Below the pieces are notes generated by a model. That model ran no database searches and was not told the origin of the DNA. It saw nothing but the letters and a program-made list of their open reading frames with translations. Below, one piece after another: positions 4,487-27,903 of a stretch of DNA of 32,000 bases. Made by a program: the position numbers and the translations under genes. This DNA comes from an uncultured bacterium (GTDB lineage Bacteria; Margulisbacteria; WOR-1; CAVSGV01): contig OY969425.1 in the NCBI GenBank assembly GCA_963699255.1, positions 30,001-62,000 of the forward strand, given 5' to 3'. The stretch's first letter is position 1. Every line of letters begins with the position of its first letter.

Positions 4487-4499
4487 GGGAGACGAAAAA

Positions 4500-6587: not shown

Positions 6588-6631
6588 GCCGCGCTTTAAG
6601 GATTTTCCCGTCCAGAAAAATCATTAAAAAC

Positions 6632-6659: not shown

Positions 6660-6721
6660 TATAGTATAGGGAAAAAGCGTCTTTCGGGCTTGAGCGTAGC
6701 ATATAAGGAGATAAACAGTAT

Positions 6722-8527: not shown

Positions 8528-8566
8528 TGTTAGAAAAAGTAAGGGGTGTAAAAGGGGGAATAAGAT

Positions 8567-10528: not shown

Positions 10529-10633
10529 TGCCTCAGGAATAGGAGTAAAATATACATATATATGTAAAGGCCGGAAATGAAGGAAAACCGCGGGTAACCT
10601 GCCCTTGGCGGGTTTTTGGTCAGGAAGGATAAT

Positions 10634-11053: not shown

Positions 11054-14000
11054 TGATTCATTCGCGGGCGCAGGCAGGAGGGTTTACATACTTGATGTTT
11101 CAAATCCTTCAGCAATGACCGTTGCGGGCAGTTTCCAGGTCGCCGCTTCGGATTCCACGGTCAACCTCTGGGGAATAGCCATAAAACCGGACGGCACAAG
11201 GCTTTATGTGGGAGACAGGTACAACTACTACGGTTATTACAAGGTGTGCGTCTACAACATAGCGGGTGCGAACAGAACAAGTCCCCAGCATGTTACGGAC
11301 ATAAACCTTGGCACGACCAAGAACCCGACCTATCTTGCCGTGAATACGGACGGGAACAGGTTATTCGTGAAAGTGGATGAGACAGCGGATCCGGGCGACG
11401 GCGCCAGAAAAGACGTTGAAATGTACGATATTTCAGGCCCCACGCCTGTGCTTATGGCGGAGGTTTATAAGATAACGGGAAATAATTACAGAAGCTACCT
11501 TCCCGGGGACCATCTTCCAACCGGCAACGATCTGGACACGAGGAACGGCAGCGAGGGTATGGCATTAAGCCCCAACGGCTGGTTCATGTATTTTTCAAAT
11601 TTTAACGGGCCTTCCGGCGACGGGAGCCTTTACTATCGGGATACTTTATACGGCTCTTCGATCGCTAATTTAACGAACGGTTTTGACAGGACAAATCCGG
11701 GGGACATCTGGGTAAGCTGGGGCGGATGCACACAGGAGTCCCCGGCCATCTGGAGCGGATGGCATTCTTCCGACGGCATCATCGCCACAAGAAACAATAA
11801 AGTTTATTTTACTTACAGCGATGTAAGCGTGACCCCGGAATATCTCAGCGTGCCGACGACGACCGACGCGAATATTCCCCCGACAGCGCCGAAAATAACC
11901 TATCCTCTGCCGCAAGCTACTAATGTTTCCGGTTTCATTACCTGGGAGCCTTCGCTGGATGACGGCATCGGTCCTCACGGATTAACATACACCGTTGAAA
12001 CCATAGAAGCTTCGACTCTGGAAGGCGGAACAACCGCCTGGAATCACATGGCTTACACCGCGACGGGCGAGGTATATACGCCTCTTATCGGAGTCAAGCC
12101 CGGCGGAACGTATTATGCCAGAGTGCAGGCTTTTGACGGCACATATACCAGCCCATGGTCCTATACGGGGCCGTTCACCATGGATGCCAATTTCCTTTTG
12201 CCACCCACATGGGAGAGCTCTTATCTGATCACATCCAGAGAAGCGGTGATCGACTGGGCAAGTGTTGCGGCGGCCGACAGTTACATTATCCAGTATAGGA
12301 TAACAGGCGAAGCGACCTGGCACAGCACGTCTGCTATAGCAAGCACATACAGGTATAATTCGACAGATCCAAATCCGAACTATAGGCTTACGAACCTTAC
12401 TCCGAGCGCGACCTATGAGGTGAATTTAATCGCGGTTAGGAGCGGGGTCAAAAGCGTCCCGTCTTCAAAGCCTTATGTTTCTTTCTACACGCTGGAAGAG
12501 CCGTGGGTGAGCCACGCCAGGGTCACGTCGACAGAGGCATATATATTGTGGGGACCTGAGGTAAGCACATTGGAGCTGAATGTTCCGAACGCTGTCAATT
12601 ATGAATGCTGGTACAGGATACAGAATGCGCCTGTGGACTGGACAAGAGTCACATGGCCTTCCGGAAAGCAGGACAGTACAACAATGACAGTGTTGAACGC
12701 CAAGCTGAGCGGCTTAACGGCGTCCACCACATATGAGGTCAGGATGAGGACCGTAGATGCATATGGCGGGCGCTCTCTCTGGTCGCCAATTCATGATGTG
12801 TACACGATGGAGCGGCCGTGGGTGAGCCACGCAAAGGTCACATCAACAGAGGCGTATATATTGTGGGGACCCGAAGAAAGCACTTCTTTTAATATACCCA
12901 ATGCCGCCAGCTATCAATATCAGTATATGAAGAAAACGGATACCTCATGGACCACCGGTCCCGAGCCTCTCAGCAAGAGAGACGATGGAACTATGCCCGT
13001 ATTGAATTTTAAGCTGAGCAATTTAACGGCGTCAACCACATATGAAGTTCAGATGAGAGCGTTGGATGTCTATGGCCGCACTTCCGACTGGTCAGCGACG
13101 GATGAAGTGTATACTCTTGAGAGCCCGTGGGTGAGCCACGCCAAGACGTCAACGAACGAATCGTACATATTGTGGGGTTCCTCGACGAGCTTTGAAGTTA
13201 GGAACGCCACTACCTACGAAGCAAGAGCCAGAATAACATCCAGCGCTTCGTGGGATGCGGTCCCGATCAAAGGGGTGCCTCGATATAATCGCGATGACGG
13301 CACCATGTCGCCGACGTTAAACATCAAATTAAGCTCGTTGCTCGGATTTACTCCGATAGTAAACACTACATATGAGGTCAGGATGAGGGCGAGAAATGCC
13401 GGCGGAGCATCTGACTGGTCCGCCACAAATGAAGTGTATGTGCTGGGGACCCCGTGGGTAAGCGCCGCGAAGGTCACATCGAAAGAGGCGTATATATTGT
13501 GGGGGCCGGTAGGCGAGACCGGGCTGGATGTGACCGGAGCTACAAGTTATCAGTGCTGGTACAGGGTGCAGAATGCGCCTGTGGACTGGACAAAGGTCAC
13601 ATGGCCTGTCGGCAAGCAGGACGATAGGACAATGGCAACGTTGAACGCCAAGCTGAGCGGCTTAACGGCGTCCACCACATATGAGGTCCAGATGAGGGCG
13701 GTTGGATCAGGAGGATACTCTGACTGGTCGCCTATCTATGATGTGTTCACATTTGAGCGGCCCTGGGTGAATCATGCGAACGTCAAAGCGACAGAAGCAT
13801 ACATATTATGGGGGCCTGAAGAAAGCGCTTCTCTTAATATACCCAATGCCGCCAGCTATGTGTATCAATACAGGAAGCCGGCGGATACTTCATGGACCAG
13901 CGGTCCCGAGCCTCTAAGCAAGCAGGACGATGGGACCATGCCCGTGTTGAATTTTAAGTTAACGGGCTTGACGGCGTTGACCACATATGAAGTTCAGATG

Positions 14001-17000
14001 AAAGCGCTGGATTCTATCGGCCGCAGCTCAGACTGGTCCGCCACAAACGAGGTGTTCACACTTGAGTGCCCGTGGGTGAGCCACGCCAAGACGTCAACGA
14101 ACGAAGCGTACATATTATGGGGTTCCACGACGAGCTTTGAAGTGATAAACGCCACGACCTACGAAGCCAAAGCCAGAATAGCATCCAGCGCTTCGTGGGC
14201 TTCCATACCGTCGATAGGGGTTCCGCGATATAACCGCGATGATGCCACCATGTCTCCTACGCTGAACATCAAACTAAGCAAGCTGCTTGGTTATGCTCCG
14301 ACTACCGGCGTTACCTATGAGGTAATAATGAGGGCGGATGGACCGGGAGGATACTCCGACTGGTCGGCCACACATGAGGTGTTCATGCTTGAGAGTCCAT
14401 GGGTGGGGCACGCCAAGGTGGCGACCAATGAGGCGATAATATTGTGGGGCGCCACGACCAGTTTCGAGGTTCAAGGGGCTACTAGCTATCAGGCTATGGC
14501 ATGCGCCAAGAACGGGGCATGGCAGCCGATAGTGAGCGTGCCTAACTTTAATATCGATGATGGGACCATAAGCCCGACGGCTACAAGTATGTTCAATATC
14601 AAATTAAGCAAGTTGCTCGGATCAGCTCCGACACTGAACACTACTTATGAAGTAATGATGAGAGCGGTCGGATCCGCGGGTTACTCCGACTGGTCAGCCA
14701 CTCATGAGGTATATATATTGGGGGCCCCATGGGTAAGCCACGCTAATGTTACAGCAACGCAGGAATATGTGTTATGGGGTCCGATAGGCCAAAGCGGCTT
14801 GAATGTGACCGGCGCGGTAAGTTATGAATATCAATACAAGAGAAAGATAGATACTTCATGGATCGGCGGCTCCGAGCCTCTCAGCAAGAGAGATAATATT
14901 TTGATGAGTTGCTTGAACTTCAGGTTGACCGGTTTGACGGCGTCAACCACATATGATGTTCAGGTGAGGTCGGTCGGGACATACGGTCGCTCCGACTGGT
15001 CTGCCACAGATGAAGTGTACACTCTTGAAAGCCCGTGGGTGAGCTACGCTAACATAACAACAAATGAAGCATCCATATTGTGGGGTTCAACGTCGAGCTT
15101 TGAAGTGATAAATGCGGCAACATATGAAGCTAAAGCCAGGATACAGGGCGGCGCTTCGTGGGATACCATCTCGTCCATAGGTGTGCCGCGATATAACCGC
15201 GATGATCCAACTATGGCTCCAACATTGAACATAAAATTAAGCAAGCTGCTCGGAATTGCTCCGACATCGGGCGTTACTTATGAAGTAATTATGAGAGCGG
15301 ATAATGCCGGCGGAGTTTCAGACTGGTCAGCCACAGCTGAGGTGTTCATGATAGGGACCCCGTGGGTAAGCCACGCGAAGGTTTCGTCTAAGGAAGCTTA
15401 TGTGTTGTGGGGACCGATAGGTCAAAGCGGTCTGGATGTGACCGGAGCCTCATCTTATGAATGCCGATACAGGATAAAGGGAGCGCAGGTGCCGTGGACA
15501 ACGAAGATCGAGCCTCTCGGCAAGCAGGACGATCCGACAATGCCTGTATTGAACTTCGAGCTTAGCAATTTAACGCCGTCCACAACATATCAGATCCAGA
15601 TGAGGGCGGATGGAACAGGAGGGAACTCCGGCTGGTCGGCAACAGATGAGGTGTATACTCTGGAGACCCCGTGGGTGAACCATGCGAACGTCAAAAAGAC
15701 AGAAGCATACATAATATGGGGATCGATAAGCGGAGGGTTGGACGTTCCCAACGCCGCCTATTACAAATATCAATACAAGAAGCTGTCGTCCGCGGTATGG
15801 ATGAGCGGTACTCAGCCTCTCGGCATGAAAGACGATCCATCAATGGCCGTGTTGAACTTCAGGCTGGCTGGATTAACGGCATCGACCTCGTATGAGGTCC
15901 AGATGAAGGCGGTAGACGCCCTCGGCGGCGAATCCGACTGGTCGGCCATTGATTATTTCATAACGATACAAGGCCCGTGGTGGATAGATGTAAGCCATGT
16001 AACCGGAACATCCGCTCTTATTTCCTGGGATAATACGGCTCCGGGAGTGACACAGTATGATCTTAGGTACAGCACGGCCCCGTCGGCGGAACTCGGGACA
16101 GCGGTCCTTACTACGGATGCCCAGCTTGCCGTCACCGGTCTTAGTACGAATACACAGTATTACGCGAAAGTGAGGGCGATAACCGCTGCCGGCCCGAGCA
16201 GCTGGACGAGTGTTGCGCCCTTCTTTACAAATCCTGTTGTAGGCCCGTCATGGATAGCTGCTTTCAATACGACAACAACAGCAACAATGGTCACGTGGGA
16301 AGGTGTATCCGGCGCAACATCGTATGAAGTGAATTACGGGATAAATACCATGCCCATGGTGTGGACTTCCTGGGCTCCGTCGCCGCAGGATCAGAATTAC
16401 GGCGGTCCTATTACAGGATTGAACCCGAGGACATGGTATAACCTGAGGGTCAAGCTGCACAGCGGCGCAAGCGCAAGCGAGTGGTCACCCACGGCGTTAT
16501 TTTATACGATACCCGCTCCGACCGGTGTTACACAGATAGGCTCCACCGTGACCACAGCGACCATTACATGGGAGCCCGTGGACATGGGCGGAGGAACGCC
16601 CGCACCCGCTTACGAGATAAGCTGGGGCGTGGATGCTACTGCTTCCGGAAGCGGTGATGCCGTAACGGGCAACATTAATTATACTATGACAGGATTAACG
16701 ACCGGCTTAACATATTATGTGACGGTCAGGGCACGCGAGAGCTCCAATCCTTCCGATGGATACAGCGATTGGTCCCCGTATCCGGCACTGCAGGTAGTGG
16801 CATCGGGAACCATGGGTCCTGTCGCTCCAGCGTGGTCAAGCCATTACCTGGTCACTTCGAATGAGGCGGTGGTGAACTGGGGAAGCGTTGCACTGGCGGA
16901 CCATTATATCGTGCAATATAAGAAATTGACCGATGCGACCTGGGCCAGCGTAGAGGTGCTAAGCACATATCAATACAATACAGCCGATACGAACCCGAAT

Positions 17001-19754
17001 TGCCAGCTTACCAATCTTTCTCCAACCGTGACCTATCAGGTAAGGGTGATATCGGAGATAGGCGCGCTGCAAAGCTTCCCGTCCAATCCGCCGGATACTT
17101 TCTACACTCTGGAAAGGCCATGGGTGGACACCTATAAGCCTGACTCAACCCAGATATATGTTACCTGGGGGCCGGAGGTCAATACATCAGAAGTAGCTGT
17201 TCCGCTCGCGGACCATTATCTCCTGCAATACAGCCAGAACGGCGGAACATCATGGACGACTTATTCGGCCAAGATCCTGGATAACACCGTTCACGATGAC
17301 GCGACCAACCTGAATTTGAACATATTATTGAGCGGCCTGATCACAAATTCAACATATGAGGTCCAGATGAGGACCGTTGACAGCACGGGCGGGTTGAGCG
17401 ACTGGTCGGCCATCAAGACGTTCCACACGATAAGAGCGCCCTGGTGGATAGACGCGACCATTACGGGAGCCGACTCTGCCAACATATTCTGGGACAATGT
17501 GTCAGCTCCGCAGTATGAACTCAGGTACAGCCATAATCCTTCAGCTGAAGGTGCAGGCATGACCGTTGTTACTACTACGGATGCAAAGTGCGCTGTCGCC
17601 GGCCTAGATGTCAATTCCACGTATTATGCGAAGGTCAGGGCGCTGACAGTCGCCGGCGCGAGCGACTGGTCGCCCATAAAGATGTTCGGTACGTTGCCCG
17701 GACCGACCTGGATATCTAATTATTTGACAACGACCACCTCGACCTCGTTCACCTGGGAGGGGGTTGCCGGGACTTATGAGGTGAGCTACGGGACAAATAC
17801 GGATGCTTCAGGCACCCTTATTTATCCGTTCATGCCGACCGATCCTTTTATCACAGGTATTACCGGGCTGACGCCGAAGACATGGTATCACGCGAAAGTG
17901 AGGGCTTATTCCAGCGGGAGCGTAAGCTCATGGTCGCCGATAGATGACTTTTTCACTATACCCGCTCCGAACAATGTTGCCTGGACAGGGTCCACTATAA
18001 CCACAGCATCCATAACATGGGAGCCGGTGGACCTGGGCGGGACGCCGTGCACCTCTTATGAGGTAAGCTGGAGCCTGACGCCCGAGGTTACGGGAAGCGT
18101 CAGTATTATGACCAAAGAGGTTTACTCGACCATATCCGGCTTAACGACAGGTTCGACTTATTATGTGAAAGTCAGGGCGCGTGACGACGCCGACAGCGGA
18201 TACAGCAGCTGGGCGCCGTATCCTCCTCTTACTATCGTGGCGACGGATCAAGCTACGATAAACGATGTGAACGCGGGTTATGGCGTTACAGGCGGCTGGA
18301 GAGGCACAACGGTCATGATCGAAGGGATGAATTTCGGTTCAACTATGGGGACCGTTTCATTTGGATCAACGGTCGCGCAGCCCGGTTACTGGAAGAACAA
18401 TGAAATAGCCGTGTCCGTGCCGCCGACCGCGGTTTCAGGACCTAATGCCATAACGGTCGTGACCAATGCCGGGGTCACCGCGACGAGCGTCCCGTCAACA
18501 TTTTTCTTTACCGTGACCGACGGCGGGGTTGTTCTTGATGACTTTGAAGGCGGCGCGTGGCAGTTCTCCACCTGCGAGGTCGGACCTCTGAACTCCGTGA
18601 GCGCAGTGAAGAACTACACCAACCCGCAGGAGAGGAACACTTATTTGACGGTTGAATGCAACGGGACCGCGGCTTATGAAATAGTGGGCGGGGTTACCCC
18701 GTACGGCGACCAGCCTACCGAGAATGGCATCGACATAAGTTCATGCAAGCAGATAAAGCTCTGGTTCAAAGGCGACGGCTCCACGAATATCGCCACATTC
18801 GAGCTGGGCGAAAGCAATATGGCGCCCGGAAACAATCCGACGAACCCGAATGCCGCGGAAATATGGGCATATAATGTTCCGATCTCCATGTCTAATACGA
18901 ACTGGCAGCAGATAACCATAAACCTGACCACTGAAGGGGCGGGCAGTTTCGCGGTTACCAACTACTGGCCCGGAGACGGCGTTCTTGAACTTAACATGAT
19001 AAAGAGCTACCAGATACTTACGAGCGGCGGGAACCCGAAATCATACGCTGTAGATTATATTTTCGCGACGACGGAAGCAGGCGGAGGCCCTGGGACAGTT
19101 AGCTATAATCTTCAGAATAATGCATCAGGGAACGTCAACTGGGTCGCATTTCCTTATACCGGTTCCGGATATAACACGACGACTGATCTGGCTGCGGCGA
19201 TAGGCAACACGATACCTATTGGTTCTCGTACCGCCTGGGTGGATGTTGTGGAAGTGAACGTATGGGATGCCACCGCCCAGTCTCAAACGACATATCAATC
19301 ATGGTGGGATGGGACCATCTGGAATGATCTGGGCAGCAACGCGAATCTGGTAGTTGGAGATATGTATACGGTTACGGTCCCAAGCAGCGCTAATGGGAAT
19401 GCTTTCTCGATCAATGGGAACACGCCTGCAAGCGGTTCTGTTTCATTTACTCTTCAGAATAATGCATCCGGAAATGTCAACTGGATGACGATACCTGCGT
19501 ATTTATCGGGGATCGTGACAACGACCGATCTGGCAACATCAATAGGCAATAAGATACCGATAGGTTCTCGCACCGCATGGGTGGATGTTGTGGAAGTGAA
19601 CGTATGGGATCCCGTCGCTCAGTCTCAAACGACATATCAATCATGGTGGGATGGGACCATCTGGAATGATCTGGGCAGCAATACGGCCGTGGTTACACCA
19701 GGCGCGTATAAAGTAACAGTTCCATCGTCAGCAAATGGCCTTGTTTGGCCATAA
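11040..19754 (+). CDS. Giant (2904 aa as tracked, ~3040 aa if joined to 10634) multi-FN3 surface/adhesin protein
   Basis: The frame is open from 10941; the tracked start is GTG 11040. YVTN/lactonase-type propeller motifs are present (ITPDGKYLYVANY, IKPDGTRLYVGDR, VNTDGNRLFVKV, LSPNGWFMYFSN). About 21 FN3-like modules follow (W..., TTYEVQMRA.., SDWS signatures). Next comes an IPT/TIG-like domain (TTVMIEGMNFGSTMGTVSFG...ITVVTNAG), then a CBM-like domain (VLDDFEGGAWQF...). Two copies of an unknown 114-aa domain close the protein. Confidence 0.9.
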   Translation: MANYDDSFAGAGRRVYILDVSNPSAMTVAGSFQVAASDSTVNLWGIAIKPDGTRLYVGDRYNYYGYYKVCVYNIAGANRTSPQHVTDINLGTTKNPTYLAVNTDGNRLFVKVDETADPGDGARKDVEMYDISGPTPVLMAEVYKITGNNYRSYLPGDHLPTGNDLDTRNGSEGMALSPNGWFMYFSNFNGPSGDGSLYYRDTLYGSSIANLTNGFDRTNPGDIWVSWGGCTQESPAIWSGWHSSDGIIATRNNKVYFTYSDVSVTPEYLSVPTTTDANIPPTAPKITYPLPQATNVSGFITWEPSLDDGIGPHGLTYTVETIEASTLEGGTTAWNHMAYTATGEVYTPLIGVKPGGTYYARVQAFDGTYTSPWSYTGPFTMDANFLLPPTWESSYLITSREAVIDWASVAAADSYIIQYRITGEATWHSTSAIASTYRYNSTDPNPNYRLTNLTPSATYEVNLIAVRSGVKSVPSSKPYVSFYTLEEPWVSHARVTSTEAYILWGPEVSTLELNVPNAVNYECWYRIQNAPVDWTRVTWPSGKQDSTTMTVLNAKLSGLTASTTYEVRMRTVDAYGGRSLWSPIHDVYTMERPWVSHAKVTSTEAYILWGPEESTSFNIPNAASYQYQYMKKTDTSWTTGPEPLSKRDDGTMPVLNFKLSNLTASTTYEVQMRALDVYGRTSDWSATDEVYTLESPWVSHAKTSTNESYILWGSSTSFEVRNATTYEARARITSSASWDAVPIKGVPRYNRDDGTMSPTLNIKLSSLLGFTPIVNTTYEVRMRARNAGGASDWSATNEVYVLGTPWVSAAKVTSKEAYILWGPVGETGLDVTGATSYQCWYRVQNAPVDWTKVTWPVGKQDDRTMATLNAKLSGLTASTTYEVQMRAVGSGGYSDWSPIYDVFTFERPWVNHANVKATEAYILWGPEESASLNIPNAASYVYQYRKPADTSWTSGPEPLSKQDDGTMPVLNFKLTGLTALTTYEVQMKALDSIGRSSDWSATNEVFTLECPWVSHAKTSTNEAYILWGSTTSFEVINATTYEAKARIASSASWASIPSIGVPRYNRDDATMSPTLNIKLSKLLGYAPTTGVTYEVIMRADGPGGYSDWSATHEVFMLESPWVGHAKVATNEAIILWGATTSFEVQGATSYQAMACAKNGAWQPIVSVPNFNIDDGTISPTATSMFNIKLSKLLGSAPTLNTTYEVMMRAVGSAGYSDWSATHEVYILGAPWVSHANVTATQEYVLWGPIGQSGLNVTGAVSYEYQYKRKIDTSWIGGSEPLSKRDNILMSCLNFRLTGLTASTTYDVQVRSVGTYGRSDWSATDEVYTLESPWVSYANITTNEASILWGSTSSFEVINAATYEAKARIQGGASWDTISSIGVPRYNRDDPTMAPTLNIKLSKLLGIAPTSGVTYEVIMRADNAGGVSDWSATAEVFMIGTPWVSHAKVSSKEAYVLWGPIGQSGLDVTGASSYECRYRIKGAQVPWTTKIEPLGKQDDPTMPVLNFELSNLTPSTTYQIQMRADGTGGNSGWSATDEVYTLETPWVNHANVKKTEAYIIWGSISGGLDVPNAAYYKYQYKKLSSAVWMSGTQPLGMKDDPSMAVLNFRLAGLTASTSYEVQMKAVDALGGESDWSAIDYFITIQGPWWIDVSHVTGTSALISWDNTAPGVTQYDLRYSTAPSAELGTAVLTTDAQLAVTGLSTNTQYYAKVRAITAAGPSSWTSVAPFFTNPVVGPSWIAAFNTTTTATMVTWEGVSGATSYEVNYGINTMPMVWTSWAPSPQDQNYGGPITGLNPRTWYNLRVKLHSGASASEWSPTALFYTIPAPTGVTQIGSTVTTATITWEPVDMGGGTPAPAYEISWGVDATASGSGDAVTGNINYTMTGLTTGLTYYVTVRARESSNPSDGYSDWSPYPALQVVASGTMGPVAPAWSSHYLVTSNEAVVNWGSVALADHYIVQYKKLTDATWASVEVLSTYQYNTADTNPNCQLTNLSPTVTYQVRVISEIGALQSFPSNPPDTFYTLERPWVDTYKPDSTQIYVTWGPEVNTSEVAVPLADHYLLQYSQNGGTSWTTYSAKILDNTVHDDATNLNLNILLSGLITNSTYEVQMRTVDSTGGLSDWSAIKTFHTIRAPWWIDATITGADSANIFWDNVSAPQYELRYSHNPSAEGAGMTVVTTTDAKCAVAGLDVNSTYYAKVRALTVAGASDWSPIKMFGTLPGPTWISNYLTTTTSTSFTWEGVAGTYEVSYGTNTDASGTLIYPFMPTDPFITGITGLTPKTWYHAKVRAYSSGSVSSWSPIDDFFTIPAPNNVAWTGSTITTASITWEPVDLGGTPCTSYEVSWSLTPEVTGSVSIMTKEVYSTISGLTTGSTYYVKVRARDDADSGYSSWAPYPPLTIVATDQATINDVNAGYGVTGGWRGTTVMIEGMNFGSTMGTVSFGSTVAQPGYWKNNEIAVSVPPTAVSGPNAITVVTNAGVTATSVPSTFFFTVTDGGVVLDDFEGGAWQFSTCEVGPLNSVSAVKNYTNPQERNTYLTVECNGTAAYEIVGGVTPYGDQPTENGIDISSCKQIKLWFKGDGSTNIATFELGESNMAPGNNPTNPNAAEIWAYNVPISMSNTNWQQITINLTTEGAGSFAVTNYWPGDGVLELNMIKSYQILTSGGNPKSYAVDYIFATTEAGGGPGTVSYNLQNNASGNVNWVAFPYTGSGYNTTTDLAAAIGNTIPIGSRTAWVDVVEVNVWDATAQSQTTYQSWWDGTIWNDLGSNANLVVGDMYTVTVPSSANGNAFSINGNTPASGSVSFTLQNNASGNVNWMTIPAYLSGIVTTTDLATSIGNKIPIGSRTAWVDVVEVNVWDPVAQSQTTYQSWWDGTIWNDLGSNTAVVTPGAYKVTVPSSANGLVWP
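12501..15974 (+). repeat. Array of 11 tandem FN3-like modules (306-330 bp each), organised as three subtypes
   Basis: The module-initial PWV(S/N)HA motif (ccgtgggtgagccacgc and variants) occurs at 12501, 12816, 13125, 13452, 13761, 14070, 14397, 14727, 15033, 15360 and 15669. The subtype order is 1-2-3-1-2-3-3'-2'-3-1-2, so the first two triads (12501-13451, 13452-14396) form a ~950-bp supra-repeat. Confidence 0.9.
15975..18242 (+). repeat. Segmental duplication inside the giant gene: three-FN3 cassette 15975-16802 repeated at 17439-18242
   Basis: Cassette 1 reads PWWIDVSHVTG...YYAKVRAITAAGPSSW...TWEGVSGATSYEVNYG...TITWEPVDMGG...YYVTVRARE. Cassette 2 reads PWWIDATITGA...YYAKVRALTVAGASDW...TWEGVAGTYEVSYG...ITWEPVDLGG...YYVKVRARD. 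The spacer (16803-17438) repeats the X module of 12195-12500 plus one PWV module. The overall plan is therefore [X + PWV x11 + cassette][X' + PWV x1 + cassette']. Confidence 0.85.
19098..19751 (+). repeat. Tandem 342-bp duplication encoding two copies of an unknown C-terminal domain
   Basis: Copy 1 is 19098-19439 (VSYNLQNNASGNVNW...) and copy 2 is 19440-19751 (VSFTLQNNASGNVNW...). Exact DNA runs of 33 and 62 nt are shared between 19221-19339 and 19563-19681, while the flanks are diverged. Confidence 0.95.
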
Positions 19755-19779
19755 TTTTATAAACGGGAGGAAGATTTTT

Positions 19780-22179
19780 ATGATAAAAATGAATTTAAAT
19801 AGAGGAGGGAAGATAGGGCTGCTGATGCTTATGGTGGCGGCAGTTCTGTGCGTAACCGCCAGTGCGTCATTTGCGGTCACGGATCAGACCTGGCTTAAAA
19901 CCGCTGCCGGGGGGCAGGTTGCTGCGGCCGGGAATTGCCGTTTTATAGCCGTTGCAAAAGGCGATGACAGCTACATCATGACAGAGGACGACGGCGGCGC
20001 GAGTTATGCCGACTCGAACGGTGCATATATGGCAGCTGGAACTACAGGATTTGCCAAAACGGACAGCACTCACTGGTCGACAGGATGGATCGTTGCAACG
20101 GATACTTACGCTATATGGGTTTCTTCGATCGCGGACGGTCAGACCGGCACTGCTTCAGGCACGATCGGCACCACTTCACCGAATTACACTACTCCGGGGA
20201 CCAACGCATCCCAGCTGTCTCTGGCAACGACCAGTTATATGGCCGCGCCGGGGAACTTTAAAGCATATGCCGGGGACAAAGTTGCATTATTGAAATGGGA
20301 TGCGGTGACAGGCGCAACAAAGTACAGGATATTCAAGGGACCGGTAACCGGCAATTCCAACAGTCTGTATTCAAAAGTGGGAACAACAACCGGTCTTTGT
20401 TATGAAGATACTTCCTTAACGGATGGAACGGCCTATTATTATATAGTTGTGCCTATGAACGGCAGCAATTGGTACGGTGTTCATGCCAATCAGTTATCGG
20501 TGACACCAAGCGCAACAGGCGCGCCGACCATATCATTGAACCCCACGACCGGTATCGTAGGCTCATCGGTCACGATAACCGGCACAAATTTTGGGGCCGC
20601 ACAGGGGACCGGGTTCGTTGAGTTCAATGGAGTGGTGGCTACGGTAACTTCATGGAGCGCTACTTCAGTGGTTGTAACAGTTCCGACCGGCGCGACAACG
20701 GGCCTTGTTTGTTTAGTTAACTCATCCAATGCCGCAAGCAATGGCGTCACTTTTACGGTTTCCACGCCCGGCACTCCTTCATTTACCAGTATTACTCCCT
20801 CAAGCGGATATAAGGGCGACACGCTCACAAGCGTTGCTATAGTGGGTGCGAATACGAACTTTGTTAATGGAACGACCACGGTGAGCATTAGCGGGAGCAA
20901 TGTGACCGTAAGCAATGTTACCGTGACCAACTCCACACATTTAACCTGTGATATCGCCATAGCTGCCGGGGCAGCCGCGGGAGCAAGGGATGTTGTTGTT
21001 ACGACCGGCAGCGAAGTCGTTACCGGGACAGGATCTTTCACGGTCAAAGCACCTGTATTCACGAGCATTTCTCCGGCCAGTGAAGCGGAGGGGACGACTA
21101 CCAGCGTGACCATAGTTGGAACAGGAACGCACTTTACCGGAACGCCTACTGTGACCTTTAGCGGGACCGGCGTTACCGCCAGCGGCATTTCTGTAACCGA
21201 TGCCACGCATTTAACATGTAATGCCGTCATCGTGGCCGTCACGGCATTGACAGCAAGGGATGTCACCGTAACGACCGGCAGTGAAACCGTTACCGGTACC
21301 GGCGTATTCACGGTCACTTCCGGAGCGCCGACCGTTACCAGCGTTTCTCCGTCAAGCGGGGCGTCGCCGGCTACGGGAATAACGATATCAGGAACGAATT
21401 TCAACGGCGTAACAGGTATAGTTATCGGCTCTACCGCGATAACCACATACACCGTTTCAAGCGCAACATCCATAACCGGCGTTTCCATCCCTTCCGGATT
21501 GGCTGCCGGAGCATATGATATAAAGGTCACGAACGCGTCAGGGACGAGCTCAGTTGTGGCAGGGGATAAATATACGGTAACACCCGGAGTGCCCACCGTT
21601 ACGAGCGTTTCTCCGTCAAGCGGAGCGTCGCCGAATACGGGAATAACGATATCAGGAACGAATTTCAGCGGCGTAACAGGTATAGTTATCGGTTCTACCG
21701 CTATAACCACATACACCGTTTCAAGCGCAACATCCATAACCGGCGTTTCCATCCCCTCCGGACTGGCTGCCGGTATATATGATATACAGGTGACGAACTC
21801 GTCAGGTCAGAGCTCGATCACGGCAGGGGATAAATATACGGTTATCGCCGGCGGCGGCGGCAATGGCTCGGGCATATATGAAGGAGCCGGCGGAGTAATG
21901 ATGGCTTATCCGAACCCGTTCAATCCGCTGGACAAGGCCAATCCGCTCAAGATGCTATTTAACGTGGCTACCGGAGAAGCGGTTGATATTTACATCTTTG
22001 ACACGAACGGAAGGGTGATCTACCAGGACAGGAACAGCGCGATCAATGCGGACAGAACGGTTACTTGGTCCGGAGACACAGCATATGGCGAAACAGTGGA
22101 TAACGGGCTCTACCTTATAAGGGTCGTAAACAACGGAAAACTGGTCGCAAAGGGCAAGATCCTGGTAATAAAGAATTGA
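19780..22179 (+). CDS. 800-aa secreted FN3 + IPT/TIG/Ig-repeat protein with a T9SS-type (FlgD-Ig-like) C-terminal sorting domain
   Basis: ATG 19780 follows GGGAGGA (19765-19771); the ORF track starts at 19735, inside the upstream gene. The signal peptide is KIGLLMLMVAAVLCVTASASFA. An FN3 domain is present (ALLKWDAVTGATKYRIF...YYYIVVP). Five IPT/Ig-like modules follow (SVTITGTNFG..). The C-terminus is AYPNPFNPL...VDIYIFDTNGRVIY...WSGD...NGLYLIRV...KGKILVIKN. Confidence 0.9.
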   Translation: MIKMNLNRGGKIGLLMLMVAAVLCVTASASFAVTDQTWLKTAAGGQVAAAGNCRFIAVAKGDDSYIMTEDDGGASYADSNGAYMAAGTTGFAKTDSTHWSTGWIVATDTYAIWVSSIADGQTGTASGTIGTTSPNYTTPGTNASQLSLATTSYMAAPGNFKAYAGDKVALLKWDAVTGATKYRIFKGPVTGNSNSLYSKVGTTTGLCYEDTSLTDGTAYYYIVVPMNGSNWYGVHANQLSVTPSATGAPTISLNPTTGIVGSSVTITGTNFGAAQGTGFVEFNGVVATVTSWSATSVVVTVPTGATTGLVCLVNSSNAASNGVTFTVSTPGTPSFTSITPSSGYKGDTLTSVAIVGANTNFVNGTTTVSISGSNVTVSNVTVTNSTHLTCDIAIAAGAAAGARDVVVTTGSEVVTGTGSFTVKAPVFTSISPASEAEGTTTSVTIVGTGTHFTGTPTVTFSGTGVTASGISVTDATHLTCNAVIVAVTALTARDVTVTTGSETVTGTGVFTVTSGAPTVTSVSPSSGASPATGITISGTNFNGVTGIVIGSTAITTYTVSSATSITGVSIPSGLAAGAYDIKVTNASGTSSVVAGDKYTVTPGVPTVTSVSPSSGASPNTGITISGTNFSGVTGIVIGSTAITTYTVSSATSITGVSIPSGLAAGIYDIQVTNSSGQSSITAGDKYTVIAGGGGNGSGIYEGAGGVMMAYPNPFNPLDKANPLKMLFNVATGEAVDIYIFDTNGRVIYQDRNSAINADRTVTWSGDTAYGETVDNGLYLIRVVNNGKLVAKGKILVIKN
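21322..21849 (+). repeat. Near-identical tandem 264-bp duplication (two IPT/TIG modules, 88 aa each)
   Basis: 21322-21585 and 21586-21849 differ at only a few scattered positions (GAPTVTSVSPSSGASPATGITISGTNFNGV... versus GVPTVTSVSPSSGASPNTGITISGTNFSGV...). Confidence 0.95.
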
Positions 22180-22601: not shown

Positions 22602-22663
22602 ATATATAGAGGGAAAGGATATAAGAGGATCAATATATCAGGCGATCAGGGGGAGAAATTCAA

Positions 22664-25252
22664 ATGCTTGGTAAAAGAAAATATTGTTTAATATTCGCGC
22701 TGTGCCTCGCGGCATGCCTCATGAGCTTTACCCCGGCTTTTTCCCTTACAGCCGACCCGATGGATCTCTCGGTGGGAGCAAGGTCAATGGGAATGGGCAA
22801 CGCCTATGTCGCTCTCGGGGAGGATGCGGAGACCGTATTTGTTAACCCTGCGGGACTCGGGACCATATCCTCGCTAAAGCTCGGGAGCATGTACACGAGC
22901 CTTCTTGATGATGTGAATTATACGGTGATATCCGGCGTATACCCGATGGACAGTAATTCAGGCACGATAGGAGCCGGCATCATAAACCAGTCCGTATCCA
23001 GCATTCCTCTTTACAGCACCGAAGGGACGCCCGAAGGCAACGGCACGTACGGGGACAATGTCTTTTTTATCTCTCACGGATTCGACCTGAGCAAAAAAGG
23101 GATTGCTGCAAATAACCTCTACGGTGGATATACATTAAAATATTTCATGAAGAGCGCGAGCGGCCAGGATACCTCGGACATGACAGGCACCGGTTTTGCC
23201 GCGGATCTCGGGCTGTTATATAAACCAACAGGATCCATATCATATGGCTTGACCCTGCAGAACATACTTGCGGGCACAATGAACTATGCCAACGGGGATG
23301 AAGATGACATCGACTCCGCCATGAAGATCGGCACCAATATAAATCTCCTCGGCGACGCGCAGGGCGGAGACGCTATTTATCAGAACGATTCAAAGGTGAA
23401 TATGGCCCTTGAATATGACATAGGCCTCAGAGGGAAAGTCCCGGCCACGGCACACGTGGGATTTGAATATAAACCCCAGCTGGGCGTTAACTTTATAGAT
23501 AAGATATTAACTCTCAGGGCAGGCTTGAACCAGATCTCCAGCCCGACAGGTAACATAAGCGATGCCACAATCGGCGTTGGCATAAATGTCCAGGGCGTGG
23601 AATTCAACTATGCCTACAGCCCGATGTACGAAGACATTCCGGGAACATCGACCCAGTACTTCTCTCTGTCATATGTGGGCGTGCCTGCGCCGGTTAAACC
23701 GATAGAAGAAATGAAGCCTCTGATCTCGCAGGCGCCTATGCCCATGATCTCCATGGTAACGCCCGATGACAAACTCGTAACGAGCGCGTCAACGATCCTT
23801 GTCCAGGGCAGGGTATCGGTCCCCGCGAAGCTGGCAAAGCTGGAGATCAATAATGCGGGAGTGAACGTTTCCGATATAGGCGCGTTCGAGATGAACGTTC
23901 CGCTTTCTTCGACAGGCAAGCACCTGATAGTCGTCCGCGCGACGGATACAGCGGGAAAGACCGAGGAGCGCCAGATAAGAGTGGTAAGAATGTCGCAATT
24001 CACGGATGTTCCAAATAATCACTGGGCGGTAACCCCGATACAACAGCTTGCCACGGCAGGCCTGATAGAAGGGTATCCGACCGGGGCATTCCAGCCGGAA
24101 AGGGCGCTGTCCAGAGCGGAGCTTGCCACTCTTCTTGTGAAGAGCAAGGGCATAGAATCAGCTCAAGCTACTGGAAGGATATTTAAAGATGTGCCTCCTT
24201 CCCACTGGGCGGCAAAATATGTGAAAGACGCGGTCGCAATGGGGCTTGTTACGGGGTACCCGGACAGGACATTCAAGCCGAACAATAAGATAAGCAGAAT
24301 GGAAGGCGTGGCGGTCCTCGCAAGGTTCGGCGAACTTCAGCAGGCCGGGCTTACAGCGAACCCGTATCCGGATGTGTCTGCCAGGTCCTGGGCGTCTCCT
24401 TTCATAGCCGCCGCAAAGACAGCCGGATTGCTTGATTATATCGGCAACAATAACTTTGAGCCCAGGAGAACTCTTACAAGGGCTGAGGCAGCTGAGATGC
24501 TCGCAAAGACCACTTATGTCAAGGCAAAACTGGACAATCTTATGGACTGGACGGTCGGCTTTGCGCCTGAAACCGGAAAAGCGGTCGTGGCCGCAGCACC
24601 CGCTACGGTTACGGGACAAACCGCCAATGTAGTTGGATTGCCCGTGCCCGGCATGGGGACAATGGTAACGCCGGGAACCGAGTTTTCCGATATACCGGAT
24701 GATTTCTGGGCAAGTAACTCGGTCAAGTACATTGCCGCTGCAGGCGTCATGAAAGGGTATCCTGACGGTACATTCAAGCCGAATAAGATCGTGAGCAGGG
24801 CGGATCTCGCTTCAATACTCGTAAAAGCAAGAAGGATCCCGGTCAATAAAGTTGCCGTGACGCAGTATTCGGATGTTTCAAGGCAGAACGTGGCGGCGCC
24901 GTACATAAAGGCCGCGGTCGTTTCCGGATATTTAACGGGAAGAAAAGGCAGCAAGTTCGAGCCGAACAAAGGGGCGTCAAGGGCCGAAGCCGTCGCCGCG
25001 CTGGTAAAGTTCGACAAAATGGAAGTGCCGACAGGACTTCGCGAGGGGCCATTCTCGGACATGAAAGCTAAAGACTGGTCATCAAAGTACGTCGCCGCAG
25101 CGAAAGATGCCGGAATGCTGGAGTTCCTGCAAGGGGATAACTTTGAAGCGAACAAGCCCATAACCAGGGCGGAGCTTGCGGAGATGATCGCAAAGACAAG
25201 TTTCGGACAGGCGAAGATAGATCAAGTGAAATCTGCCGGCATATCTCAATAA
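22664..25252 (+). CDS. 862-aa fusion: PorV/PorQ-like (FadL-type) outer-membrane beta-barrel + Ig-like domain + six SLH domains
   Basis: AGGGGGAG RBS. The signal peptide is YCLIFALCLAACLMSFTPAFS. The barrel-family N-terminal signature is GARSMGMGNAYVALGEDAETVFVNPAGLG, followed by ~340 aa of alternating strands ending YFSLSYVG. An Ig-like domain spans about 23745-23990. Six SLH repeats lie in 23999-25200, each with the pattern F/Y-x-D-V/I..W(A)...GYPDGTFKP and the TRAE-type motif (SRAELATLL, SRMEGVAVL, TRAEAAEML, SRADLASIL, SRAEAVAAL, TRAELAEMI). They form two triplets split by an A/V/T/G/P linker. Confidence 0.85.
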   Translation: MLGKRKYCLIFALCLAACLMSFTPAFSLTADPMDLSVGARSMGMGNAYVALGEDAETVFVNPAGLGTISSLKLGSMYTSLLDDVNYTVISGVYPMDSNSGTIGAGIINQSVSSIPLYSTEGTPEGNGTYGDNVFFISHGFDLSKKGIAANNLYGGYTLKYFMKSASGQDTSDMTGTGFAADLGLLYKPTGSISYGLTLQNILAGTMNYANGDEDDIDSAMKIGTNINLLGDAQGGDAIYQNDSKVNMALEYDIGLRGKVPATAHVGFEYKPQLGVNFIDKILTLRAGLNQISSPTGNISDATIGVGINVQGVEFNYAYSPMYEDIPGTSTQYFSLSYVGVPAPVKPIEEMKPLISQAPMPMISMVTPDDKLVTSASTILVQGRVSVPAKLAKLEINNAGVNVSDIGAFEMNVPLSSTGKHLIVVRATDTAGKTEERQIRVVRMSQFTDVPNNHWAVTPIQQLATAGLIEGYPTGAFQPERALSRAELATLLVKSKGIESAQATGRIFKDVPPSHWAAKYVKDAVAMGLVTGYPDRTFKPNNKISRMEGVAVLARFGELQQAGLTANPYPDVSARSWASPFIAAAKTAGLLDYIGNNNFEPRRTLTRAEAAEMLAKTTYVKAKLDNLMDWTVGFAPETGKAVVAAAPATVTGQTANVVGLPVPGMGTMVTPGTEFSDIPDDFWASNSVKYIAAAGVMKGYPDGTFKPNKIVSRADLASILVKARRIPVNKVAVTQYSDVSRQNVAAPYIKAAVVSGYLTGRKGSKFEPNKGASRAEAVAALVKFDKMEVPTGLREGPFSDMKAKDWSSKYVAAAKDAGMLEFLQGDNFEANKPITRAELAEMIAKTSFGQAKIDQVKSAGISQ

Positions 25253-25368: not shown

Positions 25369-25629
25369 ATGGCTAATACAGGCAGGGAAGAAATAATAAA
25401 TCGGCTTAACCGCATAAAAGGGCAGGTGGAGGGGATACTGCGCATGGTGGACCGTCCGAAGCCCGCGGTAGAGATATTCCATCAGATCACGGCGGCCAGG
25501 AAGGCCCTTGATTCAACGGGGAGACTGCTGCTGGAGAATTATATCCAGGAAAATTTAAGCGGTGTATCAAGGTCAAAAGGGGATAGCGATAAGATCAGGG
25601 AAATACTCGAAATAATGGAGAAGTTCTAA
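25369..25629 (+). CDS. CsoR/RcnR-fold (DUF156) transcriptional repressor, non-canonical (no Cys/His ligand set)
   Basis: The 86-aa protein has the family signature INRLNRIKGQVEGILRMV....I.HQITAARKAL...LLENY. The usual ligand positions read Ala (PAVEIF, normally Y-C-I-D) and Tyr/Asn (LLENYIQENL, normally H..HC). Confidence 0.75.
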   Translation: MANTGREEIINRLNRIKGQVEGILRMVDRPKPAVEIFHQITAARKALDSTGRLLLENYIQENLSGVSRSKGDSDKIREILEIMEKF

Positions 25630-25759: not shown

Positions 25760-26749
25760 ATGTGTATGGTAGAATGTAACAAAATGAAGAGATTTGAAAG
25801 GGTGGGCATTGTAGGTCTGGCGCTGTTCCTGTCCCTCGCAAGCCTGCCGGCCGGCAGGCGGGGGGAGGCTTTTGCGTTCTCATCCCCTCCATCAAAAGAA
25901 AAGTCGGAAGCGCCAAAAGTGGTGAGCAGGTTCAGTGCGCCTCCTGCCGAAACAGATTGGCCCACCTTCCACGGGGATGTGGACAGGAACGGCATATCTC
26001 TTGCTAAATACATCAAGCCGCCGCTTTCTGTTAAGTGGGGATACTCCACCGGCGGGAACATATGGTCTTCTCCAGCCGTGGTCGCGGACACGCTCTTTGT
26101 CGGGTCGTCTGACGGCAAGCTGTACAGCCTGGACGTCGGGGACGGCAATATGCGCTGGGCGTTCAAGACGGGAGGCGCGGTATTCTCTTCTCCGGCAGTC
26201 GACAAAGGGAACGTATATTTCGGTTCGTCGGATCACATGTTTTACGCCCTGGATGCCGATACAGGGGACCTGAAATGGTTTTTTGAGACCGGCGACCAGA
26301 TAACATCATCACCCGCGGCCTATGAAGGCAGGATTTATTTCGGTTCGTGGGACGGCTCCATGTATGCCTTAACGGATAGCGGAGGACTGAAGTGGAAATT
26401 CCAGACTGACGGCGCCATATATTCATCTCCCGCTCTGGCTTACAAGAAGGTCTTTTTCGGCTCATCTGACGGCAAGGTGTACGCGCTGGACAGGGAAAAA
26501 GGAACCCTGTCTGGACGTTCCAGACAGACGACAACATTTCCGCGACCCCGTCCATCTCGGGGAAGGTCATTTATATCGGGTCATGGGACGGCAGCATGTA
26601 CGCTCTGGGCAGCGAGGACGGGAAGCTGTTATGGAAATTCAGGACCGGGGGAGGGGTTTATTCTTCGCCGGCGATATTGGACGATACGATCATTTTTGGT
26701 TCGTATGACGGCAAGCTATACTGCCTTGACAAACAAACGGGCGCGCTAA
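25760..26749 (+). CDS. N-terminal fragment of a frameshifted PQQ-like 8-bladed beta-propeller protein (whole gene about 25760-27903)
   Basis: GAAGGGGG RBS at 25750-25757; the likely start is ATG 25766 or 25784. The signal peptide is VGIVGLALFLSLASLPAG. Blades have the form SSPAV..g.vyfGSsDgklYALD..tG.lkW.F.T. After EKGTL (about 26509) the tracked frame turns into Arg/Ser/Thr-rich junk. Confidence 0.75.
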   Translation: MCMVECNKMKRFERVGIVGLALFLSLASLPAGRRGEAFAFSSPPSKEKSEAPKVVSRFSAPPAETDWPTFHGDVDRNGISLAKYIKPPLSVKWGYSTGGNIWSSPAVVADTLFVGSSDGKLYSLDVGDGNMRWAFKTGGAVFSSPAVDKGNVYFGSSDHMFYALDADTGDLKWFFETGDQITSSPAAYEGRIYFGSWDGSMYALTDSGGLKWKFQTDGAIYSSPALAYKKVFFGSSDGKVYALDREKGTLSGRSRQTTTFPRPRPSRGRSFISGHGTAACTLWAARTGSCYGNSGPGEGFILRRRYWTIRSFLVRMTASYTALTNKRAR

Positions 26750-27903
26750 GGTGGTTTTATGCCTCAAAAGATTCCGTTTACCATTCATCGCCGGTCGTTG
26801 CCAACGGCGTTGTGTATGTGGGGCTTGGCTACAAGAACAAGGTACAGGCATTTAACGCAAGGACCGGAGAATATTTGTGGAGCTATCCGACAGGAGCGTC
26901 CGTAGGGGCCACTCCGGCTATTTCCGAAACCAACATGTACATAGCCGCGTCGGACGGCAAAATATACGCCTTCGGGGACATTGTGCCTCCGGATGCAAAA
27001 GTTAATCCGCTTAAGATGGCGCACAATCGATATGATTTTGTTGTCAGCTGGTCGGGGGAGGACAAGGGGGGATCCGGTATAAGGTCCTACGATGTCCAGT
27101 TCAGGTCGGGAGCCGGAGAGCCGTGGCAGAACTGGCTTACGAACGTGGCGACCACGTTCGCCGTTTTCGGCCCAAATGATCCTGTAGATGTCAGGGATAA
27201 TACCGTTTATTATTTCCAGGCGCGGGCCCACGATCATGCGGGGAATGTCGGCGCTTACGCCGGCGGCGACGGGGACACTTACACGATCATCGATCTGACC
27301 CCGCCGAGGATCGCGAAAGTAAGCATAAATAATGTTCAGGTGCAGTCCGGAAGTTTCATAAGCGCCAAACCGCTCATCCAGGCTTCCATAAGCGACAATG
27401 TTTCCGTGGATCCGGAGAGCCTGAAAGTCTATATCGATAATGCCGAATTCATCCCGAACAGCTTCATAGGAGGGATCATGAAGTACCAGCACAAGATCCC
27501 GCTTACGCCCGGGAAGCACAATATAAAGGTCGTCGCGGAGGACACTTCCGGCAATTGGGCTGATACGTGGGAGGTAAAGAGCGTGAGGGTTTCTGAAGGG
27601 ATAGAGGCGGCGGATATCTCGGCTTATCCTACGCCGTTCAATCCTCTGGCCGGCCCTATATATATTTCTTACAGGCTTAACGCCAGCGCGGAAACCAACA
27701 TATACATTTATGAGAGATCCGGCTCCCTGATTTTTTCGATGAAATTCAGCGAGGGGGCGAACGGAGGAAAGCGCGGCTGGAACAAAATAGCATGGAACGG
27801 CGTATCGGCATCCGACAGCATCGCGGGGAACGGGGAATATTCCTATAAGATAGTCGCCAACAGGAATCTGGTCGGAAAAGGTCAGATAATAATACAAAAA
27901 TAA
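26596..27903 (+). CDS. C-terminal fragment of the same gene: remaining propeller blades + FN3/Ig-like domains + T9SS-type C-terminal sorting domain
   Basis: This frame is already meaningful from 26512 (WTFQTDDNISATPSISGKVIYIGSWDGSMYALG). The C-terminus is AYPTPFNPLAGPIYISY...NIYIYERSGSLIF...WNG...GEYSYKIV...GKGQIIIQK, which parallels the C-terminus of the 19780-22179 protein. Confidence 0.8.
   Translation: MYALGSEDGKLLWKFRTGGGVYSSPAILDDTIIFGSYDGKLYCLDKQTGALRWFYASKDSVYHSSPVVANGVVYVGLGYKNKVQAFNARTGEYLWSYPTGASVGATPAISETNMYIAASDGKIYAFGDIVPPDAKVNPLKMAHNRYDFVVSWSGEDKGGSGIRSYDVQFRSGAGEPWQNWLTNVATTFAVFGPNDPVDVRDNTVYYFQARAHDHAGNVGAYAGGDGDTYTIIDLTPPRIAKVSINNVQVQSGSFISAKPLIQASISDNVSVDPESLKVYIDNAEFIPNSFIGGIMKYQHKIPLTPGKHNIKVVAEDTSGNWADTWEVKSVRVSEGIEAADISAYPTPFNPLAGPIYISYRLNASAETNIYIYERSGSLIFSMKFSEGANGGKRGWNKIAWNGVSASDSIAGNGEYSYKIVANRNLVGKGQIIIQK

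Follow-up and report, generated by a model that had tools for sequence, protein, structure and literature searches.

What does an outer-membrane barrel do with two cell-wall-binding modules at its own C-terminus, and why does it lie between genes whose products end like type IX secretion system (T9SS) cargo? These questions are raised by a gene at 22664..25252 (+ strand) of a 32,000-nucleotide stretch of DNA, referred to here as the window, from an uncultured WOR-1 bacterium (positions 30,001 to 62,000 of contig OY969425.1, assembly GCA_963699255.1). The gene encodes a protein of 862 amino acids (aa) in which a PorV/PorQ-family barrel is followed by an Ig-like domain and six S-layer homology (SLH) domains. 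We propose, with moderate confidence, that the barrel is a fixed dock, holding on the outside a cognate surface protein that carries a T9SS-like C-terminal domain (CTD), and that the SLH triplets pin the barrel to the wall. What appears to be new is a family-wide cassette of CTD, barrel and SLH modules outside the Fibrobacterota–Chlorobiota–Bacteroidota (FCB) superphylum, apparently undescribed.

A barrel-first, SLH-last protein and its family

The gene is an intact open reading frame (ORF) with the following features:

22664..25252, + strand: whole gene, 862 aa; signal peptide, PorV-like barrel, Ig-like domain and 2 x 3 SLH (intact ORF; Pfam, NCBIfam, models)
22649..22655, + strand: ribosome-binding site GGGGGAG, 8 nt 5' of the ATG (direct reading of the sequence)
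22664..22744, + strand: signal peptide, aa 1-27, predicted to be cleaved between ...TPAFS and LTADP (hydrophobic helix aa 5-19 in the models; homologue alignments begin at about aa 28)
22745..22873, + strand: N-terminal hatch or plug, aa 28-70, motif GARxxGMG...NPAGL (homologue alignment, AlphaFold2 model)
22874..23683, + strand: 14-strand outer-membrane beta-barrel of the PorV/PorQ family, aa 71-340 (NF033709, AlphaFold2, Foldseek, family profile)
23684..23743, + strand: Pro-rich linker of low confidence, aa 341-360 (predicted local distance difference test score, pLDDT, about 55)
23744..23989, + strand: Ig-like beta-sandwich, Glucodextran_B-like, aa 361-442, putative periplasmic spacer (Pfam; seven strands, pLDDT about 95)
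23996..24544, + strand: SLH triplet 1, aa 445-627, motifs SRAE, SRME, TRAE (Pfam; pLDDT 90-98)
24545..24682, + strand: disordered linker rich in Ala, Pro, Gly, Thr and Val, aa 628-673 (pLDDT about 30 over aa 639-673)
24683..25234, + strand: SLH triplet 2, aa 674-857, motifs SRAD, SRAE, TRAE (self-comparison, Sap match; pLDDT 65-90)

An earlier note on this DNA had placed a PorV/PorQ-like barrel at the N-terminus, and profile, model and fold all bear it out. The protein scores 101.1 bits against the NCBIfam model PorV_fam NF033709 (cutoff 90), with profile positions 8-324 of 326 aligned to aa 34-337. A model of aa 1-349, built with AlphaFold2 on 104 homologues, reaches a pLDDT of 90.1 and a predicted template-modelling score (pTM) of 0.85; it has 14 long strands, preceded by a signal helix and a short helical hatch at the N-terminus. 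The top matches of this model in a Foldseek search against the PDB were the PorV chains of Flavobacterium johnsoniae SprA–PorV complexes (8gl6_F and 6h3i_F; TM 0.65-0.67); TbuX, TodX and FadL ranked below PorV, at TM of about 0.5, and OmpM1 (8bys) far lower, at 0.36. Profile comparison gave the same ranking, with the broad family profile covering the whole of PorV 6h3i_F at E 1.3e-42 and reaching about 1e-6 for TbuX and TodX; a narrower subfamily profile had no match at E<=1 among PDB sequences. In the hatch, N61 and P62 are invariant across the 104 homologues, and A63, G64 and L65 are kept in at least 90% of them. The NPA motif is the hatch hallmark of the FadL superfamily, and entries of FadL NPA mutants stand among the fold matches in the PDB. 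Pfam returned no match of the window protein to FadL/Toluene_X (PF03349) at E<1, and PorP/SprF family models were absent from its NCBIfam matches at E<=1. At the subfamily level the window protein belongs to the PorV/PorQ family, without being PorV or PorQ proper.

The Ig-like domain previously placed between barrel and SLH region is recovered as a Glucodextran_B match (Pfam, aa 360-441, E 9e-9) and is modelled with seven strands. Pfam also recognises six SLH stretches (E 1.1e-65), and the full-length model has a pLDDT of 83.9. Their proposed arrangement as two triplets holds, since aa 444-627 and aa 672-855 align colinearly in self-comparison (40% identity, E 8e-54) and the triplet model superposes on characterised modules: that of Bacillus anthracis Sap (3pyw; TMt 0.85, root-mean-square deviation 2.3 Å), the structure 6bt4 with pyruvylated secondary cell-wall polymer (TMt 0.87), and the SLH region of Paenibacillus alvei SpaA (0.77-0.81). 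Triplet 2 matches the Sap SLH sequence as well (E 1e-21). At 40% identity the two triplets point to an old duplication of the whole triplet rather than to an artefact of repeat collapse, and each is modelled as a pseudo-trimeric module.

The description of all six motifs as TRAE-type was too uniform. In order they read SRAE, SRME, TRAE, SRAD, SRAE and TRAE, and what is kept throughout is the Arg, present in six of six repeats. When motif-Arg conservation is counted by alignment column, all five six-SLH proteins have Arg at all six positions; the three-SLH relatives have it in 61/61 cases in SLH1, 36/61 in SLH2 (with Lys in many of the others) and 61/61 in SLH3. Because the triplets match those of Sap and SpaA, and because CsaB and SLH domains are reported to co-occur in diderm Terrabacteria, the ligand is probably a pyruvylated secondary cell-wall polymer.

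Could the join between barrel and SLH modules be an assembly chimera or a sequencing artefact? Two other genes in the window carry apparent frameshifts (described below), so indel-type problems do occur in this assembly. The gene itself is intact, and its 862-aa product recurs unchanged on an independent Logan contig of 4,006 bp and again on a record from a 1.77-Mb contig. Orthologues with the layout barrel, Ig-like domain and six SLH domains occur at 75, 75, 63 and 45% identity (L007-L010), five orthologues in all share the six-SLH layout, and barrel, Ig-like domain and SLH region are covered by a single unbroken alignment in over 100 clusters at 50% identity. Together with the low identity between the two triplets, the independent contig and the orthologues of the same architecture rule out a chimera, whose probability we put at practically nil.

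The architecture is far from confined to this locus. A barrel-only query retrieved 196 homologues; the closest 22, some of them named Candidatus Margulisbacteria or Saganbacteria, include many SLH proteins of 575-608 aa, and the sequences all place the barrel first and the SLH domains last. A scan of one genome per GTDB species, with a profile made from five closer sequences, returned 295 relatives, and the best 80 loci come nearly all from Margulisiibacteriota, Saganbacteria or WOR-1, often with several per genome. ORFs called in these loci and searched with self-built barrel and SLH hidden Markov models (HMMs) gave 93 barrel genes in 84 non-redundant loci spanning 1.27 Mb, the survey to which the counts below refer. 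Three SLH domains are present in 61 of the 93 (about 600-690 aa) and six in 5; 23 have none, and 4 are truncated or degenerate. Wherever SLH domains occur in a surveyed barrel gene they are C-terminal. In a library of 1.84 billion representatives, 514 proteins match at E<=1e-30, and most of the top 150 of these align unbroken over query aa of about 10-635, which covers barrel, Ig-like domain and triplet 1; a handful are 800-950 aa long. A neighbour-joining tree groups the six-SLH proteins in one clade and the barrel-only proteins with very small partners (see below) in another.

Barrel-first, SLH-last is the common, majority form of a large uncharacterised family in Margulisiibacteriota and Saganbacteria, and the six-SLH form is a minor elaboration of it in which the anchor is duplicated. 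The earlier note had called the order reversed relative to OmpM- and Slp-type tethers, as indeed it is; the order proves common rather than peculiar to this gene, yet our literature search found no paper describing proteins with a PorV-like barrel followed by SLH domains, none on a T9SS in Margulisbacteria or Saganbacteria, and no envelope study of outer membrane and secretion in Margulisbacteria. Database names go no further than 'PorV/PorQ family protein' or 'S-layer homology domain-containing protein'. Beyond this family, fusions to TPR repeats occur in many PorV/PorQ-family proteins from Zixibacteria, Goldbacteria, Spirochaetes and other groups (for example P0046, P0059, P0066, P0073 and P0116), which suggests that periplasmic additions to PorV/PorQ-family barrels are a general theme.

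The pairing of CTD genes with barrel genes

The barrel gene of the window lies downstream of a gene for a TIG-repeat protein with a CTD and upstream of a gene for a propeller protein with a second CTD. An HMM seeded from these two CTDs found 85 C-terminal CTDs in the non-redundant loci. At strict thresholds, 64 of them belong to a gene that directly precedes a barrel gene in the same orientation, at a distance of -28 to +271 nt; at relaxed thresholds a CTD gene, often overlapping, stands directly upstream of 70 of the 87 barrel genes that have a usable upstream flank (about 80%). Only about 15-21 CTD genes were found elsewhere in the flanks of the 84 loci, and the exceptions are mostly the second barrel of a tandem pair or cases in which the CTD gene lies directly downstream. 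Clustering of 954 flank genes from these loci brought out no recurring T9SS core, sortase, CsaB or other family, and housekeeping synteny only.

The CTDs are of a recognisable kind. Out of 84, 69 match both TIGR04183 (E<=0.01) and the C-terminus of PorU, and 48 match the C-terminus of PorZ; the type-B model TIGR04131 is matched by only 6. Pfam assigns FlgD_ig to 65 and Por_Secre_tail to 42. Pairwise distances among barrels correlate with those among their adjacent CTDs (Mantel r=0.74, a value reached in 0 of 2000 permutations), and in 58 of 70 pairs the member with the closest barrel also ranks among the five closest by CTD. By these sequence distances, CTD and barrel co-diversify. The partner proteins, which range up to 2,210 aa, contain TIG (24/49) and CBM_11 (12) domains as well as Big, fn3, PKD, cadherin and BNR (Pfam), all of them typical cell-surface modules.

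The barrel-only members are informative in their own way. Most are paired with proteins of 108-122 aa that consist of a signal peptide and a CTD alone; because these barrels keep CTD-only partners, it can be argued that the CTD is a stable ligand and not a disposable signal. In at least 10 genomes such a pair, forming its own clade, lies beside rpsB-tsf-polA and sepF-proC (L035 9501-10963; equivalents in L038, L039, L042, L045, L048, L052, L054, L055, L057, L058 and L060), and it looks like a housekeeping CTD/barrel pair.

Further variants of the cassette were seen in the course of the survey. In L087 (1921-4289; P0013) LysM takes the place of SLH at the C-terminus of the same barrel, and the gene comes after a CTD gene whose stop codon overlaps the barrel gene's start; the variant shows a wall-binding module joined independently to a PorV-like barrel. 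A PorV-like gene of Elusimicrobiota (P0097; L088 1-6939, L089 2-3408) overlaps the stop of a gene whose giant product (5,456 aa) has a CTD-like C-terminus, so that the order of CTD followed by PorV-like barrel reaches another non-FCB phylum. Elsewhere, two barrel-SLH paralogues stand in tandem or interleaved with one or two CTD genes (L002 4603-15851, L005 6918-13768, L041, L043, L073 and L077), an arrangement that indicates local duplication of the cassette; the CTD genes of the L002 array encode BNR/PSII_BNR proteins.

The neighbours of the barrel gene in the window are these:

11040..19754, + strand: giant fn3-repeat surface protein without a CTD, 2,904 aa; its stop overlaps the TIG-CTD gene
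19735..22179, + strand: upstream partner, listed as 814 aa; TIG/IPT repeats between a signal peptide and a type-A-like CTD
21913..22173, + strand: CTD of the upstream partner, aa 727-813 (YPNPFNP...GKGKILVIKN) (TIGR04183; self-built CTD HMM, E 9e-27)
25369..25629, + strand: CsoR-like metal-sensing repressor gene (between the barrel and propeller-CTD genes in L008, L009 and L010)
25760..27903, + strand: second CTD gene; BamB-like propeller, Ig-like region and CTD, in ORFs 25760-26749 and 26596-27903
27634..27900, + strand: CTD of the downstream propeller protein (...NRNLVGKGQIIIQK) (self-built CTD HMM, E 1e-24; matches the PorU C-terminal region)

The upstream partner exceeds the cutoff of TIGR04183, the T9SS type-A model (23 bits), with 30.7 bits for the whole protein and 36.6 bits for the isolated CTD; translation probably begins at the Met that precedes its signal peptide, at about 19780. 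CTD genes do lie on both sides of the barrel gene, as the earlier note had it, and the qualification concerns the downstream one: the CsoR-like gene comes in between, and a frameshift near 26497-26506, where GGGAAAAAGG has an A5 run, breaks the propeller gene in two. In L008, L009 and L010 its orthologues are whole and encode 703-715 aa; the split copy is either a pseudogene or the product of an indel error. In the six-SLH clade the conserved order is giant fn3, TIG-CTD, barrel-6SLH, CsoR-like and propeller-CTD, then thiC onward. The L007 locus has no CsoR-like gene, and thiC directly follows its barrel gene.

Orthologues of the giant fn3 gene lie upstream of the TIG-CTD gene in L008 and L009. 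In the window this gene begins at a GTG without a signal peptide, and an ORF in another frame (10616-11053) that has one (MRIKNLLIGLMTVMLTAMLSSAAFA...) extends into that start, an arrangement suggestive of a second frameshift. Further from the barrel gene, 107-9947 holds five consecutive + strand ORFs (1459, 695, 601, 283 and 207 aa) without Pfam or NCBIfam matches or obvious signal peptides and with no homologues in the 84 related loci. Their coding strand is markedly A-rich, with an AT skew of 0.22-0.28 over 1-5000, and the C-terminal stretch of the 695-aa product (...SLTFTWMF) is aromatic and beta-rich. Scans of the window for tRNA, Rfam families, promoters and terminators gave nothing decisive.

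A dock-and-tether model and its alternatives

How would such a protein work? An even-stranded outer-membrane barrel has both termini in the periplasm, and with 14 strands the Ig-like domain and both SLH triplets are accordingly placed there. The chain would then run from a monomeric barrel through its periplasmic C-terminus and the Ig-like spacer to two three-SLH modules; since each triplet corresponds to a wall-binding module in characterised proteins, the barrel would be pinned to the wall at two points. By analogy with T9SS attachment proteins, its outer face may hold the uncleaved type-A-like CTD of the adjacent TIG-repeat protein (19735-22179), giving a continuous connection from surface protein through CTD, barrel and SLH modules to the cell wall. 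One polypeptide would thereby merge what Bacteroidota do with PorP and the peptidoglycan-binding PorE. Barrels of PorV and FadL type are monomeric, and OmpM-type proteins with one SLH domain assemble as trimers, three chains supplying the triplet; this difference would explain the need for three SLH domains in cis. Cargo docking combined with tethering had been suggested before from this locus, and the suggestion, still one of analogy, is strengthened by the adjacency of CTD genes in about 80% of cases and by the co-diversification of CTD and barrel.

Several points weigh against the fixed dock. Docking of the CTD to the barrel, and retention of the CTD, are read from gene linkage and analogy, and adjacency with correlated divergence could also reflect co-inheritance within an operon with some other functional link. 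The model does not account for the partner's route across the outer membrane; reports of T9SS come from the FCB superphylum only (PMC11205867), and no T9SS-like neighbour recurs in the 1.27 Mb of flanks, which are a small fraction of each genome. The equivalog cutoffs are missed by a wide interval, at 34.5 against 250 bits for PorV (NF033710), 39.9 against 220 for PorQ (NF033711) and 40 against 325 for PorV2 (NF052325), all NCBIfam models. In the window itself, 484 nt separate the CTD gene from the barrel gene, looser than the typical -28 to +60 nt, and the gap holds weak promoter-like and terminator-like motifs.

The same observations can be set against other readings. Were the protein a purely structural, OmpA-like tether, the barrel would be a mere membrane anchor, the SLH triplets would staple the outer membrane to the wall, and the CTD genes would be unrelated or co-regulated. 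The two intact triplets with conserved Arg, the presence of several paralogues per genome, the rule of SLH-based tethering in diderm Terrabacteria and the roughly 20% of family members that have no adjacent CTD gene would all suit such a tether. We nevertheless consider it unlikely, given that a CTD gene directly precedes the barrel gene in some 80%, that the flanks otherwise hold few CTD genes and that CTD and barrel co-diversify; that barrels without SLH domains keep a CTD-only partner, so that the pairing is independent of tethering; and that the barrel comes from the one barrel family known to bind CTDs. It is also conceivable that the barrel is there specifically to export or assemble the protein encoded upstream, much as in two-partner or type V secretion: the CTD would direct the partner to its own barrel, the BAM complex (beta-barrel assembly machinery) would help, and SprA would be unneeded. 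The strict pairing of one CTD gene with one barrel gene, their stop and start codons overlapping, would fit, as would the reports of T9SS from FCB phyla only and the lack of T9SS core genes nearby, and in F. johnsoniae the cognate PorP/SprF protein is needed for secretion and not just for anchoring. A 14-strand lumen filled by a hatch is, however, a poor conduit for Ig, TIG and CBM proteins of up to 2,210 aa, and PorV- or FadL-type barrels have no known precedent as protein translocons; on this account we think export by the barrel improbable.

Two further readings take the fold at face value. The conserved NPAGL hatch motif and the significant structural matches to TbuX, TodX and FadL could mean a wall-anchored channel of FadL type, whose hatch and fold serve hydrophobic uptake and not docking. 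PorV is closer both by fold (TM 0.66 against about 0.5) and by profile (E 1e-42 against 1e-6), FadL/Toluene_X is absent at E<1 in Pfam, and such a channel would leave the pairing with CTD genes unexplained, which makes it very improbable in our judgement. Membership of the PorV family and neighbouring genes with type-A-like CTDs would also be expected of a mobile PorV shuttle that passes cargo from SprA to the PorU sortase in a canonical T9SS encoded elsewhere in the genome. Two SLH anchors would immobilise a shuttle, the scores fall far short of the PorV equivalog cutoff, many paralogues each have a CTD gene of their own in place of one general shuttle, and T9SS is unreported outside FCB; a shuttle is, we think, very improbable. 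The fixed dock, with the reservations set out above, is the reading we retain.

What would be the relevance of a fixed dock? CTD/PorV recognition has been treated as a speciality of FCB bacteria, and SLH tethering has been known only in the form of SLH first and porin last. A sister phylum of Cyanobacteria combines a CTD/PorV-like pairing with SLH tethering, and most of its barrels carry a complete SLH module. If docking is true, it would be a compact genetic coupling of surface coat, outer membrane and cell wall. We speculate further, and regard it as possible if rather doubtful, that Margulisiibacteriota and some Elusimicrobiota display surface proteins without the SprA/PorKLMN machinery: the cassette barrel would receive its partner, hold it permanently and, by way of SLH or LysM domains, couple the coat to the wall. 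Such a system would be independent, perhaps ancestral to the part of the T9SS that recognises and attaches cargo, and would be a second SLH-based tether in diderm Terrabacteria. With docking true, the family would also offer about 70 natural cognate pairs as a resource for the rules of CTD–barrel recognition and a handle on the evolution of the T9SS attachment module. In these lineages, which reportedly lack Pal and the Lol system and have OmpA only sporadically, it would be a handle on envelope cohesion too.

Comparison with known systems

The closest counterparts among T9SS components are the PorQ–PorZ and PorV–PorU pairs. PorQ anchors PorZ, the CTDs of PorU and PorZ are uncleaved, and the PorQ–PorZ complex forms independently of PorU and PorV (PMC10947112). 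The window protein would share with these pairs a 14-strand barrel of the PorV/PorQ family and the proposed non-covalent hold on an uncleaved CTD, and 48-69 of the 84 surveyed CTDs resemble the C-termini of PorZ and PorU. Unlike PorQ and PorV, the window barrel has its own wall anchor in the form of six SLH domains and belongs to a non-FCB phylum, and its family has many paralogous barrel/CTD pairs per genome, encoded by adjacent genes.

A barrel tied to the wall is known from the PorE–PorP–PG1035 complex, in which PorE ties a PorP-like barrel and a type-B CTD protein to peptidoglycan, and SprF binds SprB (PMC9143113). Type-B cargo genes are genetically linked to those of their cognate PorP/SprF proteins (PMC12618676). 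Linkage of a cargo gene to its cognate surface-anchoring barrel, and a periplasmic wall-binding module (OmpA_C-like in PorE), are features that the window locus would have in common with these systems (PMC9143113, PMC10947112, PMC12618676). The differences lie in the barrel, which is of PorV/PorQ type, in the CTD, which is type-A-like and not type B, and in the wall module, which consists of SLH domains fused in cis and not of a separate lipoprotein as in PorE–PorP–PG1035.

Among diderm Terrabacteria, SLH-barrel outer-membrane tethers have been described to include Margulisbacteria and Saganbacteria, and the OmpM/Slp architecture is that of a single N-terminal SLH domain on a porin. As in OmpM, Slp, SlpA and the cyanobacterial SLH-porins, SLH domains in the window family would link an outer-membrane beta-barrel to a modified cell wall. 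In contrast to all of these, the barrel is N-terminal and the SLH domains are C-terminal, with three or six per chain; compared with OmpM and Slp, the barrel is of the 14-strand PorV/FadL type and not a porin, and no coiled-coil stalk is predicted for the window protein, an Ig-like domain standing in that position. Judged from its sequence, the window protein is not an OmpM-type tether.

In its predicted overall layout the window protein is like OmpA, which also has the barrel first, an internal beta-signal in the last strand and a periplasmic C-terminal domain that binds the wall. OmpA differs in its 8-strand barrel, its OmpA_C domain and the lack of any link to CTD cargo. For the wall-binding modules themselves the comparison is with Sap of B. 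anthracis and SpaA of P. alvei: an entire triplet matches theirs in sequence (E 1e-21) and fold (TMt 0.77-0.87), and the TRAE-type Arg residues are kept. In these two proteins of monoderm bacteria the triplet fixes an S-layer protein to the wall with nothing in between; the window triplets are predicted to sit beneath an outer-membrane barrel, with a different chain as the surface protein.

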